From Candidatus Saccharimonadota bacterium (GTDB taxonomy: Bacteria; Pseudomonadota; Gammaproteobacteria; Enterobacterales; Enterobacteriaceae): a DNA stretch of 32,000 nt. The stretch's first letter is position 1, and every line of letters starts with the position of its first letter. A model generated the notes under the pieces. It was not told the DNA's origin and ran no database searches. It saw only the letters and a list, made by a program, of their open reading frames with translations. Position numbers and translations under genes: made by a program. Positions 23,551 to 31,092 of the stretch are shown here, in pieces. The DNA lies in NCBI GenBank assembly GCA_041941795.1, contig CP145872.1:270001-302000 (forward strand). Reading direction: 5' to 3'.

Positions 23551-24060
23551 ATGAACAAAATATTATTGTTAATAACGAGCTTATTTTTCTCCACTTCCAT
23601 TTATGCACTCGGACAAATATCAGGTAATATTGGAGTCCATATGATTATAGGAAATGGTTGTGAAATTACTGGAGGAGAAGCTCTGAACTTTGGCAACTTA
23701 GATTTCGGAGAACATCCAAATATTAATAATGTAATAGATGCGACTACTAACTCAACGGCAGTAAATAATGTTACATTGGGTGTAAATTGTACAAAAGGAG
23801 TATCTTATCATCTAACTCTAAGTAATGGATTACAACCGGAAGGAACACAAAGAAGAATGAAAGGAGAAAAAAATGAATTTATAAAATATGATCTGTATAA
23901 AGATGCAACATATTCCTTACTATGGAATAGTAAGGAGATATTAAGTAACAAAGGCAATGGAGAAAATAGGCCCTTAATAATTTACGGTCGAGTACCCAAA
24001 CAAGTGGTTCCTAGTGCGGGAACATATCTAGATATGTTGACTATTACACTTACCTGGTAA
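23551..24060 (+). CDS. Spore-coat-U (SCPU) domain major pilin of a Csu-like archaic chaperone-usher pilus
   Basis: The ORF is 169 aa. A signal peptide is present (MNKILLLITSLFFSTSIYA). The SCPU pattern matches CsuA/B-type pilins: Cys pair (GNGCEITG ... GVNCTKG), LNFGNLDFG, IKYDLYKDA, and C-terminal AGTYLDMLTITLTW. An SD-like GGAAGAG lies 6 nt upstream. Confidence 0.85.
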   Translation: MNKILLLITSLFFSTSIYALGQISGNIGVHMIIGNGCEITGGEALNFGNLDFGEHPNINNVIDATTNSTAVNNVTLGVNCTKGVSYHLTLSNGLQPEGTQRRMKGEKNEFIKYDLYKDATYSLLWNSKEILSNKGNGENRPLIIYGRVPKQVVPSAGTYLDMLTITLTW

Positions 24061-24289
24061 ATCTATCTTTAAGAAGAACAAAAAGATTGCTTGCTAGAAA
24101 ATTTTTATTTAAGTGAAGAATCTTTCCTAGAAGATAACTATGTTAATAGTTTGATTACATAACTGTGGTCTCAAGAATCAAAAAGTACATAGTGTCAATA
24201 GAAAGTTCTGCATATGCATGAGATATAAATACTAATTTTCTAACTGGAGATAAAATAAAGAGCAGAATATAGGGAGAAAACCTAATTGT

Positions 24290-25087
24290 ATGGATTACAA
24301 AATAAGAGTAAGCGGATGGTGGATAGTTGTATCTCTAATAATAGGAACTATTCCAGTAGTACCAGCTGCATCATTAAATATTTGGCCAATTGATCCCATT
24401 ATTGAATGTAATGATAATACTACCTTATTATGGTTAGAAAATGTGGATAAAAATGATATTGTATTACAAATACGCATTTTTAGCTGGCAACAAAAACAGA
24501 ATCAATCCTTTCTAGAAAAACAAAATGATATAAGAGTTAGTCCACCAATAGTATTGATTGCCTCTGGACAAAAACAACTACTACGTTTAGTTAAGATAAT
24601 AGCTCCTTCTAAATATGAGGAAAAAGCATATCGTATAGTTATTGATGAAATTCCTCGCGTAAATAATTATCAAGACAATGGTGAAAAACAGAACATAGAA
24701 TTAAAATTCAAAATGCGTTATTCTATCCCATTATTTGTGTATGGTTCTAACATAAAATCTCCATCAGATATTTTACATCCTCTCAATAATAATTTGGTTC
24801 TTTCTACTCCCAAATTACATTATTTCATTCTTAATGAAAAAAATAAAAATTACTTACATATTCGTAATGAAGGAATCGTACATGCTAAACTTAGTGAAGT
24901 ATACTTAGAAGATAATAAAAATAAATATTTAGTCAGTGATGGATTACTAGGTTATGTCCTACCAGGCAATGAAATAATTGTTCCAATTTCTGACTCGTTA
25001 AGAGGAAGAAAAATATTATCTGCTCAGATCAATGATCGACCCGAAATTGAAACTATTCCCTTTTTTAATTTTGTTGAAAACAAATAA
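24290..25087 (+). CDS. Periplasmic pilus chaperone (PapD-like, CsuC-type)
   Basis: The ORF is 265 aa with an N-terminal signal/TM segment. It shows the pattern of sigma-class chaperones: LNIWPIDPII..., LWLENVDKNDIVLQIRIFSWQQ..., VSPPIVLIASGQKQLLRLV, YRIVIDEIP. It sits between the pilin and usher genes. Confidence 0.8.
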   Translation: MDYKIRVSGWWIVVSLIIGTIPVVPAASLNIWPIDPIIECNDNTTLLWLENVDKNDIVLQIRIFSWQQKQNQSFLEKQNDIRVSPPIVLIASGQKQLLRLVKIIAPSKYEEKAYRIVIDEIPRVNNYQDNGEKQNIELKFKMRYSIPLFVYGSNIKSPSDILHPLNNNLVLSTPKLHYFILNEKNKNYLHIRNEGIVHAKLSEVYLEDNKNKYLVSDGLLGYVLPGNEIIVPISDSLRGRKILSAQINDRPEIETIPFFNFVENK

Positions 25088-25121
25088 TTAGTCCAGATAT
25101 TATGACGCCACTAAAAGTGCA

Positions 25122-27596
25122 ATGCAACTAAGAATTGAGTGTTGGTTATTTTTACTCCTCTTTTTTATCCCTCGGGCGGAAGGTCAAATAAGGCCAAATA
25201 TTTTCGTTCCTAGCAGTACTCAGTTATATTTAGAACTAGTGATGAATGGCAATGCTACGCACCAAATATTCCCCGTAAAATATAAAAGTAGGCATTTTTA
25301 TATGTCAATAGACTCATTAAAAAAAATAGGATTTAATTTTGATAAGATAATACTCGGAAAAGTACACAATTTTTCTCACAATGAGATAGCTCTAGATTTA
25401 GTAAGTAATTTACTTACTAAATATGATCCAAAGATGCAAAGATTTTTTATGGATGTGCCTTATTCTTGGTGGCCAGAAAACAAAATTATGCCGATAAACT
25501 ATCCCAGTATAAGCAAAGACGAAGGTCAAAGTTCTTTCGGAGGAATATTAAACTATGATTGGTATTTCAATACCTTTCTGAAAAATACTAAAAGAGTTCA
25601 ATCTTCATTATGGTCAGAGATTAGATTATTTAATCGCATAGGTGTCTTCTCCCATACGGGAATATTACGAATCAACAGTTTATTAAATCCAAATATAAAA
25701 AAAACATCTTACATACGTTATGAAACTCAATGGAGTATGAATAGCGAACCATATATGTTGCACTATATAATAGGTGATTATACTACGGATGTTTTTACCG
25801 GATATTCTCCAGTGCGGATGGTTGGCATTAAAGTATCTCGACAATTCACTATCCATCCTGAGAAAATTACGTATTCCTTACCTAACATTAGTGGATACGC
25901 TACTATGCCTAGTCTCTTAGATGTATATATGAATAATGACAAAATAATCTCTAGACCAATTAGTCCCGGAAAATTTCAGTTGATAAATAATTTAGGATAT
26001 TTAAATGGTTATAATATGGCTACTATCCTAACATCCGATTTATTAGGGCGCTCTAAACGAATTCAAGTGCCTTGTTATGTAGATAGAAATATTCTTAATG
26101 TAGGTAGCACTGATTTTAGTCTATCATTAGGATCTTTACGACGACATTACGGACGAAAATCTTTTGATTATGATTCGGATATATCTTTAAGGGGATTTAT
26201 AAGATATGGATTAGCACCATGGATAACAGTTAATACAATCCTAGAAAGTACTAAAAATTTTTTTAATATAGGAGTAGGAGGGGATATAAAATGTTTCCTT
26301 TTAGGAATAGTAAATATTTCATGGAGTCTCAGTAGTACCACCAAAGAAAAAAGTACTCCAGTGTATTCTGTTCCTGCTGGAGTCACTCATAATATTAGAT
26401 CTATCTTAAAATTTAACATTAATAAATGGAATGACAGTAATTGGCAGTATACAGGACAACAGATAAACTTAGGGTATACCTACCAGAATACATTCTTAAA
26501 TTTAAATGCTCAATATAACTACCGAATGGGAAGTTATAGTGAGTTATTAAATTATGCGAGTCAGTCACCAAATTACTTGGTTAAGCATTTAACTCAAATT
26601 AATGGGACCATTAATTTGAGTAATTCTAGCAATATGAGTGTAAGTTTTCTGGAACATCGAGACCTAAACAAAAAAAGATTAAAAGAATTTAATATTTCAT
26701 ATAGTACTTCCTTAGGAAGAAATATTAATTTATGGACTTCAATAAATAAATATACGGGGGAAAAATCCGGCTATAAAGCAAACTTAATGTTAAGTATCCC
26801 TTTAAATAGTTTTGGAAATACATCCTTTGTATCTGAGGTAGATGAAGAGCATAATTCCTTCATAAGTCAATCATGGAATAGAAGTATTCCCTCTTATGAA
26901 GGGATAGGATGGAATGTTAATTTTTCTAAGAAAAATACTGATCATCCCTTTCATCAAGCTAATATTATTTGGAAAAATAAATATTTTTCTACTCAAGCAG
27001 GTTTAGATGAAGTTAATAATTCTCCAAATCTATGGTGGCAATTAAGTGGTGCCTTGGTTGCTATAGGAAAATATATGAATTTTTCCTCACCTATTAATGA
27101 TGGATTCGTACTGATATCAACTAATGGATATCCAAATATCCCTATTTTTTATGAAAACAGATTGATTGGAAAAACTAATAATAAGGGATATTTATTAGTT
27201 TCATCTGTACAATCCTGGTATCCTGGTACCATAGCTCTTGATCCTAAAAATATTTCACCTGGCATTAATATTCCTTCGACAATTAAAAAATTTATCCTTA
27301 AAGAACGGAGTGGTTATATAGTAAATTTTGATCTATCAAGTACTCAATCTGCTTTTTTTTCAGTGATTGATAAAGAAGGTCACTTTTTACCTCCCGGTAG
27401 TCTAGTGAGGATAATAGGTACTTCCAAGATGACTTGGTCAGGATTAGAAGGAGAAGTCTTCATTAAAGATATCAATAAGAACAAGCATAATCTACTTCTT
27501 ATTACTAGATCTGACAATAATAATACTTGTAAAGTAGTATTTGATAAACCATCAGAAGATGTAATATCAACTCCAGGATTACAACTATGCAAGTAA
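25122..27596 (+). CDS. Outer-membrane pilus usher (CsuD-type)
   Basis: The ORF is 824 aa with a signal peptide (MQLRIECWLFLLLFFIPRAEG). Its size, its Y/N/S/G-rich beta-barrel-like composition and its position after the chaperone are typical of fimbrial ushers. The assignment rests on context and composition, not on a motif search. Confidence 0.8.
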   Translation: MQLRIECWLFLLLFFIPRAEGQIRPNIFVPSSTQLYLELVMNGNATHQIFPVKYKSRHFYMSIDSLKKIGFNFDKIILGKVHNFSHNEIALDLVSNLLTKYDPKMQRFFMDVPYSWWPENKIMPINYPSISKDEGQSSFGGILNYDWYFNTFLKNTKRVQSSLWSEIRLFNRIGVFSHTGILRINSLLNPNIKKTSYIRYETQWSMNSEPYMLHYIIGDYTTDVFTGYSPVRMVGIKVSRQFTIHPEKITYSLPNISGYATMPSLLDVYMNNDKIISRPISPGKFQLINNLGYLNGYNMATILTSDLLGRSKRIQVPCYVDRNILNVGSTDFSLSLGSLRRHYGRKSFDYDSDISLRGFIRYGLAPWITVNTILESTKNFFNIGVGGDIKCFLLGIVNISWSLSSTTKEKSTPVYSVPAGVTHNIRSILKFNINKWNDSNWQYTGQQINLGYTYQNTFLNLNAQYNYRMGSYSELLNYASQSPNYLVKHLTQINGTINLSNSSNMSVSFLEHRDLNKKRLKEFNISYSTSLGRNINLWTSINKYTGEKSGYKANLMLSIPLNSFGNTSFVSEVDEEHNSFISQSWNRSIPSYEGIGWNVNFSKKNTDHPFHQANIIWKNKYFSTQAGLDEVNNSPNLWWQLSGALVAIGKYMNFSSPINDGFVLISTNGYPNIPIFYENRLIGKTNNKGYLLVSSVQSWYPGTIALDPKNISPGINIPSTIKKFILKERSGYIVNFDLSSTQSAFFSVIDKEGHFLPPGSLVRIIGTSKMTWSGLEGEVFIKDINKNKHNLLLITRSDNNNTCKVVFDKPSEDVISTPGLQLCK

Positions 27597-28555
27597 AGGA
27601 CCATAATAATTTCTATTATCCCCGTAATTATATAAAAATTTTTCCAATTATTATTGCTCTTTTCTATCTGCCTGTAACCAGAGGAGATTGTACTTTTTCT
27701 CATGGAGATGTAAGTTTAGGACCGACTAATTCCTTTAGTTTACTTCATGGATCTATCCAGTCGTCCGGAAAGTCAGGCATGGTTTGTTCAGGATTTAATG
27801 CTACATTTTTAACTCATAATACTATTAGAGCTCAGATTCTTTCTACTTTAAATAACATGAAGCTGAAAAATCAAGATACTTCAACAGAAGAAGATATTCC
27901 ATATCTAATATATCCAGATAAAAATTATCAGTATGCTTATAAAGTAGGACAAGAGATAGACTTCGATAAATTAAATTTACTGTCATTAATATTTTCCTCA
28001 AATAATAGTGAAATTCCTCTCTATATAAAAACTCATCCCAGTACTAACGTCGCTTCGGGCCTTTATGAAGACGTGATTCAAATGAAATGGGAATATTCTA
28101 TTTGTCGAGTAGGTACATTATTTCTATGTTTTTCTAATTGGAAAGGAAAAGGATTTACTACTGTCAAAGTACATGGTTTAGTAAATAAAGAATGTTTAAT
28201 AAATACAATAAATGATATTGATTTGGGTTCTACAACTTCACTAGATAAGGTTCCCCCATTAACTACTCATATCACGGTAAGCTGCACTAAAAAAGAACAT
28301 TTCAATGTTTGGTTTACAGATGGGAATTTTTCTCATGGAGGATGGAGACAAATGAGTGATGGACTAGATCATTATATCCAATATAATATTTATCATCCTG
28401 ACACCAATCTTATCTGGAATCAAAATACTAAATTGGGTTTTACAGGTTTAGGTAGTACTCAATTGATTACCTATCAAGTATCAGTTAATAATAAACAGAC
28501 CAATGTAACTGCTGGCAACTATTCCGATACTATTTCTATAGTAGTAGAGTATTAG
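27587..28555 (+). CDS. Two-domain SCPU tip subunit / putative adhesin (CsuE-like)
   Basis: The ORF is 322 aa. Its ATG overlaps the usher stop by 10 nt (ctATGcaagTAA). A hydrophobic leader is present (IKIFPIIIALFYLPVTRG). The C-terminal pilin-like half has SCPU signatures (IQYNIYHPDTNLIW, VTAGNYSDTISIVVEY). The N-terminal half (ASGLYEDVIQMKWEY) is more divergent. Confidence 0.65.
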   Translation: MQVKDHNNFYYPRNYIKIFPIIIALFYLPVTRGDCTFSHGDVSLGPTNSFSLLHGSIQSSGKSGMVCSGFNATFLTHNTIRAQILSTLNNMKLKNQDTSTEEDIPYLIYPDKNYQYAYKVGQEIDFDKLNLLSLIFSSNNSEIPLYIKTHPSTNVASGLYEDVIQMKWEYSICRVGTLFLCFSNWKGKGFTTVKVHGLVNKECLINTINDIDLGSTTSLDKVPPLTTHITVSCTKKEHFNVWFTDGNFSHGGWRQMSDGLDHYIQYNIYHPDTNLIWNQNTKLGFTGLGSTQLITYQVSVNNKQTNVTAGNYSDTISIVVEY

Positions 28556-28590
28556 CTTGAATCTACAATAGGATGAATACCTTTTTTAAG

Positions 28591-29597
28591 ATGTCAACAC
28601 ATTAGATACAATGAAAAGAAAATTCTTTGACTAACTCCACACGGTACCACTCTCATTCTTCAGGATAGATGCAGGATGCACGAATTTTTAAGAAAAAAAA
28701 ACTTAGGAACCAAAAAGCAGATGTTACATCATATTTTATAATGATTGCGAGCTGCCGGTAAAAGAGATCGATGCAGTCTCTTAAACGAGAAATTGAAGCA
28801 GGATATTAACCTAAAATTAATAATGATGATATTATATTTACTTCTGCTGTGATAGAGAACGAGGTTTTCACTAATATAATTTTTACACCTAATAAGGGCT
28901 TTGCACATGCCTATAGATTGAAGAGTAAATTTAAATTTTTTTAATTAAAAAAGTATGTAATAGTATAATTACTCAGATGAGCTATTTTAATCAAGACAGA
29001 ATATCTATTTCCGATAGGGTTGGTTATTTTCATACTATCTTGATGATAAATATATAGATACTAAATCTTATACGGATGTAATAAAGCGCGTACAAATTTT
29101 CTTTTCTTGTTTACTTAAAACATTCGGTCACACTATAAATTTAATCAGGACATTACCTTTTTGCTAGCTCAATCCGGATGTTTATTATCCCAAGTAAGAA
29201 CAGTAAAAATACTGAAGATCTAATTGGGATATTAATCCATGGGATTTTAATCGCTTAAAGCGACCTACAAGGTATGGAAGTTATCATTATATTTTAATCG
29301 TCCCAGAAAATGCTCGATCTAAAACAAATGTGGGAGGAAGACATGTATGTGAAGCCAGCGATATTATTTTTACGCTAGATATCTAGGACCAATATTTTTC
29401 CCGAACTTTACCTCAACTTAATAAACTTAAAGGAGGATATTATTTAGTATTTCATGATCACGGATCATACGAATCTTAAATATCATCAAATTATAATAAC
29501 CTTTTTATTCCCTGAAGTTTTATTAGATAATGGATACCTACGACCCATAACGACAAATAATAGAGTAATTATAAAGGGAGAATCATTTCTATAAATA
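28591..29597 (+). pseudogene. lysA: Diaminopimelate decarboxylase pseudogene (multiple stops, frameshifts, internal deletion of roughly 80-90 codons)
   Basis: No ORF of 60 aa or more exists here, but stop-interrupted frames are collinear with E. coli LysA. SLKREIEAGY*PKINNDDIIFTSAVIENE matches SLGEIERALAAGYNPQTHPDDIVFTADVIDQA. FLLAQSGCLLSQVRTVK matches FLVAQSGVLITQVRSVK. DFNRLKRPTRYGSYHYI matches GFNDLMRPAMYGSYHHI. VGGRHVCEASDIIFT matches VAGPLCESGDVFT. LKGGYYLVFHDHGSYES*ISSNYNNLFIP*SF matches KAGDYLVLHDTGAYGASMSSNYNSRPLLPEVLF. Examples of in-frame stops are TAA 28807 and TAG 29384. At least two frame changes occur. The end coordinate is approximate. The relic is convergent with ygdQ, matching the E. 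coli mutH-ygdQ...lysA neighbourhood. Confidence 0.8.
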
Positions 29598-29608
29598 GAG
29601 AAATGATT
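29581..29608. terminator. Hairpin (10-bp stem AATCATTTCT/AGAAATGATT, 8-nt loop) between convergent lysA relic and ygdQ; possible terminator
   Basis: Read directly. It lies 31 nt downstream of the ygdQ stop on the minus strand. A second small hairpin, GAAAC-TAA-GTTTC, sits at 29610-29622. No clean U-tract follows, so the terminator role is uncertain. Confidence 0.3.
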
Positions 29609-29638
29609 AGAAACTAAGTTTCATTTACAGTCCTGCTA

Positions 29639-30364
29639 TTATTGAACATAATTTTTTCTATATAAAAAATTTAAACCTTCTACTAATAGAGCAAAACATA
29701 AAGATGCATATAGATATCCTCTAGGAATATGTATGAAAATTCCTTCTAGCATAAGAATTATTCCTAATAAACCTATAAAGGCTAAGGTTAATATTTTGAG
29801 AAAAATATTATAGTGCAGAAATTTAGCTATTTTTCTAGAAAAAAAGAACAATATAATGGCTGAAAAAATTAAGGCAATAAACATTACTGTCTGATTGGTA
29901 GAAATACTGACTGCAGTTAGTACTGAATCCATGCTAAAAAGAATATCTAACACAATAATCTCTCCCACTACTTTGCCAAATGAAAAACATTCTTTTTTTC
30001 TAGCAAACAAGCCTGAGGTATTAAAATTTAATATAATTGTATTATGGAGTTCTTTCAAAGATTTACATAATAAAAATATTCCTCCCAGTAAAAAAATTAA
30101 TTCCCGAAATGAAAAATTATGAAAGAATATAGTAAATATTGGGTTAGTAAATTTCAACATCCAACTGGCAATACTTAATAAGATAATACGTATTACCAGT
30201 GATACTCCTAACCCAAACATTAAAGCCGGATTTTGTTGATGACTAGGAAGATGAGAGATTTGCAAAGATATTAAAAGAATATTGTCCATACCTAGGATCA
30301 CTTCTACACTCATTAAAGTGAGTAATGATATCCATGTACTTGGAACTAGTATCCATGTAAACAT
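29639..30364 (-). CDS. ygdQ: TerC-family integral membrane protein (YgdQ-like, UPF0053)
   Basis: The ORF is 241 aa and polytopic. It is collinear with E. coli YgdQ: VEVILGMDNILLISL versus LEIVLGIDNIIFLSL, LKFTNPIFTIF versus TRLTNPLFTIF, and LDILFSMDSVLTAV versus LDIIFSLDSVITAV. It lies directly downstream of mutH, as in E. coli. Confidence 0.88.
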   Translation of the reverse strand: MFTWILVPSTWISLLTLMSVEVILGMDNILLISLQISHLPSHQQNPALMFGLGVSLVIRIILLSIASWMLKFTNPIFTIFFHNFSFRELIFLLGGIFLLCKSLKELHNTIILNFNTSGLFARKKECFSFGKVVGEIIVLDILFSMDSVLTAVSISTNQTVMFIALIFSAIILFFFSRKIAKFLHYNIFLKILTLAFIGLLGIILMLEGIFIHIPRGYLYASLCFALLVEGLNFLYRKNYVQ

Positions 30365-30411: not shown

Positions 30412-31092
30412 TTAATCAAAAAATTGACTCTTTAATATAAGATGAGTAAAGCGTTTTTTTAAATAAAATCCTCGCTGTCGGGTACGAATATAGTGCCCAT
30501 ATTTATCATATGCGGCAGTAAAATATTGACTGGAAGAGGATTTAGTTTTGATTTGCAGACACTCCCCATTACGAGCACTAATATCTTCTATTTCACCAAA
30601 TGTAATTGAATCCATAAAATCTTCCCAGTCTCGACGTAAATATAATTCTTGCTGTGTACTGGGACTCCATAAAAAAGGGTTCCCTATTCTTCTCTTAGAG
30701 AGGGGTATTTTACGACTTCCTTCTATAGGAATCCATAATACTCGTAGAAGTTTTTTACGTACCGAAGACTGCTCCCAGGTCAGACCAATAGTATTGATTA
30801 ATGATACTCCACAAATAAATGTATTTTCTAATGGTGTTCCATCTGAATTTACAGGAATAGTCTTTAATTCTACCCCTATTCGGGTAAAGTCTGGCTTGGA
30901 TTTATTACCGGCATCGGCTCCGAGATATTTTTCCATTAGCATTCCCACCCATCCCTTATGATATTGTAATTTTATAGGAATCTTGGATTCTAATTCACTT
31001 AAAGTAGATCCGGATAGTAAATATGCTCTCTCTATTAGAGTTTGTTCATCTTCTGGAGGAGAAATTACCTGTAAATAATCTTTTTTAATCAT
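30412..31092 (-). CDS. mutH: DNA mismatch repair endonuclease MutH
   Basis: The ORF is 226 aa. It reads HKGWVGMLMEKYLGA, GVELKTIPV, LRVLWIPIEGSRKIPLSKRRIGNPFLWSP and RGFYLKKRFT, and is collinear with E. coli MutH. Confidence 0.95.
   Translation of the reverse strand: MIKKDYLQVISPPEDEQTLIERAYLLSGSTLSELESKIPIKLQYHKGWVGMLMEKYLGADAGNKSKPDFTRIGVELKTIPVNSDGTPLENTFICGVSLINTIGLTWEQSSVRKKLLRVLWIPIEGSRKIPLSKRRIGNPFLWSPSTQQELYLRRDWEDFMDSITFGEIEDISARNGECLQIKTKSSSSQYFTAAYDKYGHYIRTRQRGFYLKKRFTHLILKSQFFD

Follow-up and report, generated by a model that had tools for sequence, protein, structure and literature searches.

We observed that positions 28591 to 29625 (+ strand) of the window, the 32,000-nt stretch of DNA analysed here (contig CP145872.1, positions 270,001 to 302,000), hold the remains of lysA, the gene for meso-diaminopimelate decarboxylase. 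The explanation that we consider very probable is a joint one, in which this is a unitary and non-functional lysA pseudogene at its ancestral chromosomal position, inactivated long ago, lost piecemeal, and accompanied by a redirection of the upper part of the pathway. Since its inactivation the sequence has drifted no more slowly than synonymous sites, and deletions have been removing it piece by piece. The genes dapA, dapB and dapD stayed under purifying selection after the death of lysA, and dapF was crippled recently by an in-frame deletion. The retained upper pathway would no longer allow the symbiont to provision lysine unaided; its most likely role is the supply of a DAP-type intermediate, either for the cell wall (murE is intact) or for completion outside the bacterium, and the symbiont would draw its own lysine from the host. 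For a reduced endosymbiont this is unsurprising, and the relic is an ordinary pseudogene; it documents a single step in the genome erosion of a beetle symbiont that provisions tyrosine.

The genome that carries the relic (G000; 513,178 bp in a single contig, 98.9% complete) belongs to the Listrus clade of 'Candidatus Dasytiphilus stammeri', the bacteriome symbiont of Dasytinae beetles, and was compared within a sample of 16 species-level genomes of the genus. Wierz et al. 2024 (ISME J, PMC11191362) described 20 Dasytiphilus genomes of 437-601 kb from dasytine soft-winged flower beetles, and the loss of lysA in the Listrus clade, together with its possible meanings, is already known from that paper. 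There lysA is scored as lacking or absent in the Listrus clade, and a remnant is not described within the text and supplements that were searched. According to the same text, Listrus sp. 01 and the Dasytes clade have lost the whole lysine pathway, and Listrus sp. 06 and the Danacea clade carry it in pseudogenised form. As explanations for the lysA loss it discusses compensation by the host, substitution by speA (which is rejected) and a use of DAP for the envelope only. The authors prefer a 'partial but functional' lysine pathway, and in their RELAX analysis dapA, dapB and dapD remain under purifying selection. Our data likewise have lysA missing in the Listrus clade, and add the relic itself, a lesion common to a second species, a genus-wide erosion series at the locus, a corrected argument on lysR and the promoter, and a crippled dapF in G000 that has lost 115 codons.

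The longest + strand ORF in the interval 28556-29638 is 46 aa. A sequence-only reading of this DNA had proposed that the interval is a decayed lysA, legible in pieces in three forward frames, and had quoted five peptides from it. All five could be recovered, DDIIFTSAVIE and FLLAQSGCLLSQVRTVK in frame 3 and YGSYHYI, VCEASDIIFT and YYLVFHDHGSYES*ISSNYN in frame 1, and the three-frame pieces were indeed collinear with congeneric LysA when the proposal was checked by tblastn. The query, a congener's intact LysA of 419 aa (L013:1480-2736), matched the locus in six collinear pieces on the + strand, covering residues 76-405 in the frame order 3, 2, 1, 3, 1, 2. These were residues 76-112 at 28768-28878 (frame 3), 201-223 at 28944-29012 (frame 2), 227 onward from 29018 (frame 1), 272-288 at 29158-29208 (frame 3), 302-388 at 29246-29500 (frame 1) and 391-405 at 29505-29549 (frame 2). 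At the nucleotide level, blastn aligned 342 nt collinearly between the relic and the intact lysA of congeners (66-67% identity, E 5.5e-17). The MAFFT alignment of the relic and intact lysA gave 59% identity over 949 aligned columns, and the ancestral residue was still encoded by 127 of the 307 retained codons (41%).

We also searched the raw six-frame DNA of the genome, with stops read through, using the family model TIGR01048. There was one match genome-wide, at 29246-29500 (E 3.1e-10, 37 bits), which spans model positions 311-386 and contains two stops. This segment corresponds to the C-terminal sheet domain and is the best preserved of the relic (41% aa identity to congeneric LysA). For a stitched read-through, the best NCBIfam match was again TIGR01048 (E 7e-24, 84 bits); PF00278 matched above its 23-bit cut-off (E 9e-6, 26.3 bits), and PF02784 fell under its cut-off at 18.4 bits. 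The equivalog cut-off of TIGR01048 is 297.9 bits, which the relic does not reach in either form. In contrast, the lysA genes of the Dasytastes clade, which occupy the same chromosomal slot between the pilus tip gene and the convergent TerC-mutH pair, are open frames of 419 codons whose products score 405-412 bits, above the cut-off. Judged from the DNA and its translations, the relic is homologous to lysA and is clearly non-functional as a member of this family. The sequence-only reading had made its metabolic inference conditional on there being no second copy. In an HMM scan (E up to 10) and a whole-genome tblastn with congeneric LysA no other copy was found, the relic locus alone being matched in the latter (E 2.3e-17; next best E at least 0.8), so that the relic is the sole lysA-like sequence in this genome.

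To map the lesions, the spacers between the pilus tip gene and the TerC gene from nine genomes were aligned with MAFFT and projected onto the ancestral frame. Along the ancestral frame we counted at least 12 stops, together with about 13 frameshifting indels, which exceeds the several stops and at least two frameshifts noticed earlier; the stops are of all three kinds (TAA, TAG and TGA). A 29-nt deletion (junction 28727/28728, + strand) removes IRFAQKSCSNI, the PLP-lysine motif in the intact orthologue. A second deletion, of 208 nt (junction 28866/28867, + strand), removes approximately codons 109-177, i.e. the region HRVWLRVNPGFGHGH...GGENSKHG (about 69 codons), and is also seen in the alignment of G007. 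The spacer as a whole is 259 nt (86 codons) short of the 1342 nt of the intact loci; the earlier estimate had been 80-90 missing central codons. The HIGSG, GGG and EPGR motifs are destroyed in the relic (the HIGSG position reads PID*R), and an uninterrupted frame of about 420 codons is not present. It had also been thought that the relic begins at about residue 15. We found instead that it starts at the original start-codon region, with an ATG at 28591 or 28611, and extends to the ancestral stop position at 29625, as supported by tblastn, the alignment and the TIGR01048 match. The stretch between the stop of the tip gene and the first candidate start (28556-28590, + strand) is about 80% conserved in the relics of three congeners.

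The position of the relic was assessed from its neighbours. Upstream lies the gene for a pilus tip subunit with two SCPU domains (27587-28555, + strand; Pfam SCPU E 9e-33), the last gene of a Csu-type chaperone-usher operon, whose product has 88-94% aa identity among Listrus-clade congeners. Downstream, and convergent with the relic, is a gene for a TerC-family membrane protein (ygdQ-like; 29639-30364, - strand; Pfam TerC E 3.6e-37), which was found in 16/16 genus genomes. It is followed by mutH (30412-31092, - strand; Pfam MutH E 3.9e-32), which is syntenic in every congener examined. The tip gene and the TerC gene served as the upstream and downstream synteny anchors. An intact lysA is present in five of the 16 genomes (CP145875, CP145878, CP145881, CP145882 and CP145883, each of about 600 kb, 585-601 kb), all from the Dasytastes clade of 'Ca. 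Dasytiphilus stammeri'; the other genomes are without an intact copy. The order in these five is Band7, Csu-type pilus operon, lysA, convergent TerC, mutH, and the intact gene (1260 nt) starts 72 nt past the stop of the pilus tip gene, with TerC 10 nt further on. Since the relic has the same flanking genes as lysA in these five congeners, it is the lysA orthologue and occupies the ancestral place. The presence of mutH and the ygdQ-like gene by lysA resembles what we take to be a collapsed form of the E. coli K-12 neighbourhood mutH-ygdQ-...-galR-lysA-lysR.

The sequence-only reading had further taken the absence of the lysA promoter and of the divergent lysR as part of the decay. This did not hold, since the five congeners with an intact lysA are also without an adjacent lysR and have an upstream spacer of only 72 nt. 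As the intact loci likewise have neither lysR nor a long promoter region, the absence reflects the ancestral layout and not decay. In each of these five congeners a single LysR-family gene lies about 237 kb from the intact lysA, and its counterpart is kept in G000.

The locus has been eroded to different extents across the genus. The spacer between the tip gene and TerC is 1342 nt where lysA is intact, and it measures 1083 nt in G000, 727 nt in G007, 255 nt in G009, 206 nt in G003 and 53 nt in G005; further spacers in the genus are 80, 28, 7, 4 and 4 nt. The G000 relic is thus the largest remnant in the genus. Congeners carry independent and nested deletions at this locus: G007 has an extra deletion beyond the shared 208-nt block, and G009 has kept just the two ends of the relic. 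Short blastn matches in G002 and G004 (26-28 nt, E 8.6e-4) were dismissed because they lie far from the TerC locus in those genomes, and the TerC-locus spacers of both (51-80 nt) carry no lysA trace.

The 208-nt deletion has an identical 5' edge and the same missing block in G000 and G007, which indicates that lysA was dead before these two species split. None of the five Listrus-clade genomes (G000, G003, G005, G007 and G009) has an intact lysA, and together they make up a single clade (support 100/100). In a tree of TerC and MutH the four relic-bearing genomes group together with G005, which is probably Listrus sp. 01, as their sister (100/100). As this tree leaves the order of G000, G003 and G007 unresolved, it gives no ground for placing the shared deletion in the common ancestor of the four relic-bearing species. 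It would appear that lysA was not lost at one stroke; the gene was dead before the sampled species split, as shown by the aligned deletion edges for at least G000 and G007, and was then whittled away at lineage-specific speeds. The spacers in this way form a natural time series, if a small one, of how deletions erode a single locus.

We further estimated how fast the relic has diverged. Between Listrus-clade species its Jukes-Cantor distance is 0.26-0.33, while for the flanking and dap genes dS is 0.07-0.21 and dN is 0.03-0.06. Identity at third codon positions is 88-92% in the flanking genes versus 73-78% in the relic. As the distance of the relic exceeds the dS of its neighbours, it evolves no more slowly than synonymous sites. 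We also observed that the divergence of the relic is about twice the NG86 dS of its neighbours. This excess may arise because synonymous sites are constrained or underestimated in an AT-rich genome, or because misalignment around indels inflates the distance.

We then examined the rest of the lysine pathway in this genome. The genes thrA, asd, dapA, dapB, dapD and murE are intact in G000. Among Listrus-clade species dapA, dapB and dapD have dN/dS values of 0.22-0.32, as for ordinary functional genes, which indicates that something still uses the upper pathway. As there is no other lysA, the bacterium is unable to convert meso-DAP to lysine, and no other fold-type-III decarboxylase was found in G000. 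A role for speA as substitute decarboxylase was rejected, the speA-like matches (about 640-670 aa) being confined to the five large genomes. The earlier view that the organism stops at meso-DAP had to be given up, since the steps before it are also damaged. dapE is a 95-codon stump (G000:C1:394390-394674) that is without internal stops and adjoins glyS; it is likewise broken in the other three relic-bearing species (G003, G007 and G009), where the lesions differ. No match to ddh was seen in G000, and a bypass through dapL was discarded, as the only model match was a 414-aa aminotransferase with 20 bits against a cut-off of 364.7 bits.

The state of dapF is of separate interest. It is a 170-aa ORF at G000:C1:493554-494066, about 193 kb downstream of the window, and it abuts uvrD. 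In comparison with the intact dapF of G003 it has a clean in-frame deletion of 345 nt (115 codons), known from the assembly alone, which takes the C-terminal domain with the GNPH and CGSGAC regions, the latter containing the second catalytic cysteine. In the half that is left, identity to G003 DapF is 91% and dN/dS is 0.29, and from these values the loss of dapF is recent. The table in PMC11191362 has dapF present in every Listrus-clade strain bar sp. 01 and sp. 06, and hence in what is probably the strain studied here, the symbiont of Listrus sp. 02. The assignment follows from the gene indices in Supplementary File 2 of that paper (dapA 10, dapD 304, dapE 331 marked 'no', dapF 438, uvrD 439), which agree with the positions of these genes in G000.

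The three final steps of lysine synthesis (dapE, dapF and lysA) are therefore all broken in G000. With dapE and dapF broken and no bypass, meso-DAP cannot be made by the annotated route. This weakens, for G000, the assumption of a 'partial but functional' pathway (PMC11191362). The suggestion that the organism is not a lysine provisioner, or that the step is supplied by the host or a partner, was reasonable, and it has already been debated in print in the same paper. A search of G000 for a lysine importer found no AA_permease, AA_permease_2 or SBP_bac_3 protein, so that G000 would be a lysine auxotroph without a recognisable lysine importer. The user of the upper pathway may be the cell wall, by way of a putative desuccinylase, or a route completed by the host.

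One possibility, which we regard as unlikely though worth weighing, is that the symbiont makes an intermediate (with thrA, asd, dapA, dapB, dapD and serC) and that beetle enzymes finish lysine. The beetle may in that case have acquired dapE, dapF or lysA horizontally, and the relic would mark a hand-over and not the end of provisioning. The intact dapA, dapB and dapD, with their dN/dS of 0.22-0.32 after lysA was already dead, are what this would predict. In Portiera (whitefly) and Tremblaya/Moranella (mealybug) the late genes dapE, dapF and lysA are lost and the early dap genes kept, and the steps broken in G000 are those lost in the Portiera and Tremblaya systems with host complementation. 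In those systems host-encoded bacterial genes have been demonstrated, whereas Dasytiphilus is known here from the symbiont genomes alone. The Portiera and Tremblaya cases are cited as precedent in PMC11191362 (refs 64-65), whose authors, as noted, favour a pathway that still works in part. However, two members of the same clade do without the pathway, G009, where it has decayed fully, and G005, where nothing of it is left, and it is thus dispensable for some hosts. Moreover, purifying selection on dapF in this lineage lasted until very recently (dN/dS 0.29 on the retained half), which is unexpected if the host has long had a dapF of its own.

It is rather improbable that G000 runs the pathway as far as meso-DAP solely for peptidoglycan, with the last step alone dead. 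Rickettsia, with which such a state would be compared, retains both dapE and dapF, whereas G000 has both broken. The likeness is that G000 has likewise lost lysA and still has murE and the upstream dap genes. For Rickettsia, Andersson et al., cited in the supplement of PMC11191362, reportedly described a DAP pathway that is retained for peptidoglycan although lysA is missing. Within the genus, G003 has an intact dapF beside a lysA locus cut to 206 nt, from which a state of this kind was probably long-lived in the clade. For G000 itself it is contradicted by the dapF that lacks 115 codons including the region of the second catalytic cysteine, by the 95-codon dapE stump, by the broken state of dapE in each of the four relic-bearing species, and by the lack of a ddh or dapL bypass in G000.

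The breakage of dapE also bears on the preferred explanation, that of an old lysA pseudogene with a redirected upper pathway. Where the cell wall is taken as the user, a dapE that is dead in four relic-bearing species leaves the N-succinyl-LL-DAP step unexplained. A more specific proposal, to which we give little credence, is that selection has preserved the upper genes (thrA, asd, dapA, dapB and dapD) long after the death of dapE and lysA because an intermediate is used in the symbiosis. In one form of this proposal the Listrus host would complete lysine or DAP synthesis with bacterial genes acquired horizontally, a parallel in beetles to the mosaics of mealybugs and whiteflies. In the other form the peptidoglycan of the symbiont would contain a non-canonical diamino acid, such as LL-DAP or a host-derived analogue, reached by a route bypassing DapE and DapF.

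Two further readings have almost nothing to recommend them. That lysA is intact or still expressed, with breaks to be explained by errors of assembly, by programmed frameshifting or by a different genetic code, is contradicted by stops of all three kinds with about 13 frameshifting indels, by the physical absence of the PLP-lysine motif and 69 central codons, by a deletion common to the assembly of another species and by divergence at or above the synonymous rate; with dozens of lesions, some common to a second species, a single assembly error is no explanation. That the similarity is due to chance, the interval being ordinary AT-rich intergenic DNA unrelated to lysA, could draw only on a blastn comparison of the relic with every complete E. 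coli genome, which gave no match and is uninformative because the relic is too diverged and AT-shifted, and it is countered by the HMM matches (E 3.1e-10 raw, 7e-24 in read-through), the blastn match to congeneric lysA (E 5.5e-17 over 342 collinear nt) and the exact synteny.

Near the 3' end of the relic, just past the convergent TerC stop, we observed a perfect inverted repeat (29581-29608; 10-bp arms AATCATTTCT / AGAAATGATT, 8-nt loop) inside an insertion of about 30 nt. A similar insertion is present in G003 and is absent from G007 and G009. The repeat might be a weak terminator for TerC; a terminator scan of 28300-29900 called nothing, the repeat included. Over the same interval an Rfam scan (E up to 1) found no family, and promoter-like sites were not above shuffled sequences (14 versus 10.4 +/- 3.3 expected). 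Judging from these scans, nothing points to a new RNA or a new regulatory element in the relic.

The operon upstream of the relic is an observation in its own right. This Csu-type pilus operon (window positions 23551-28555) encodes an SCPU pilin, a PapD chaperone, an usher and the two-domain SCPU tip, and it lies beside TerC-mutH in 14/16 genus genomes. It is unusual cargo for intracellular symbionts of 0.44-0.6 Mb, and purifying selection acts on its tip gene (dN/dS 0.22-0.39). G002 is without the operon entirely, Band7 being followed directly by TerC. A mirror image of the locus studied here was seen in isolate Dlin (CP145878; L018:5080-6000), in which lysA is intact and the upstream pilus operon is itself a relic of about 920 nt that consists of usher and tip gene fragments only.
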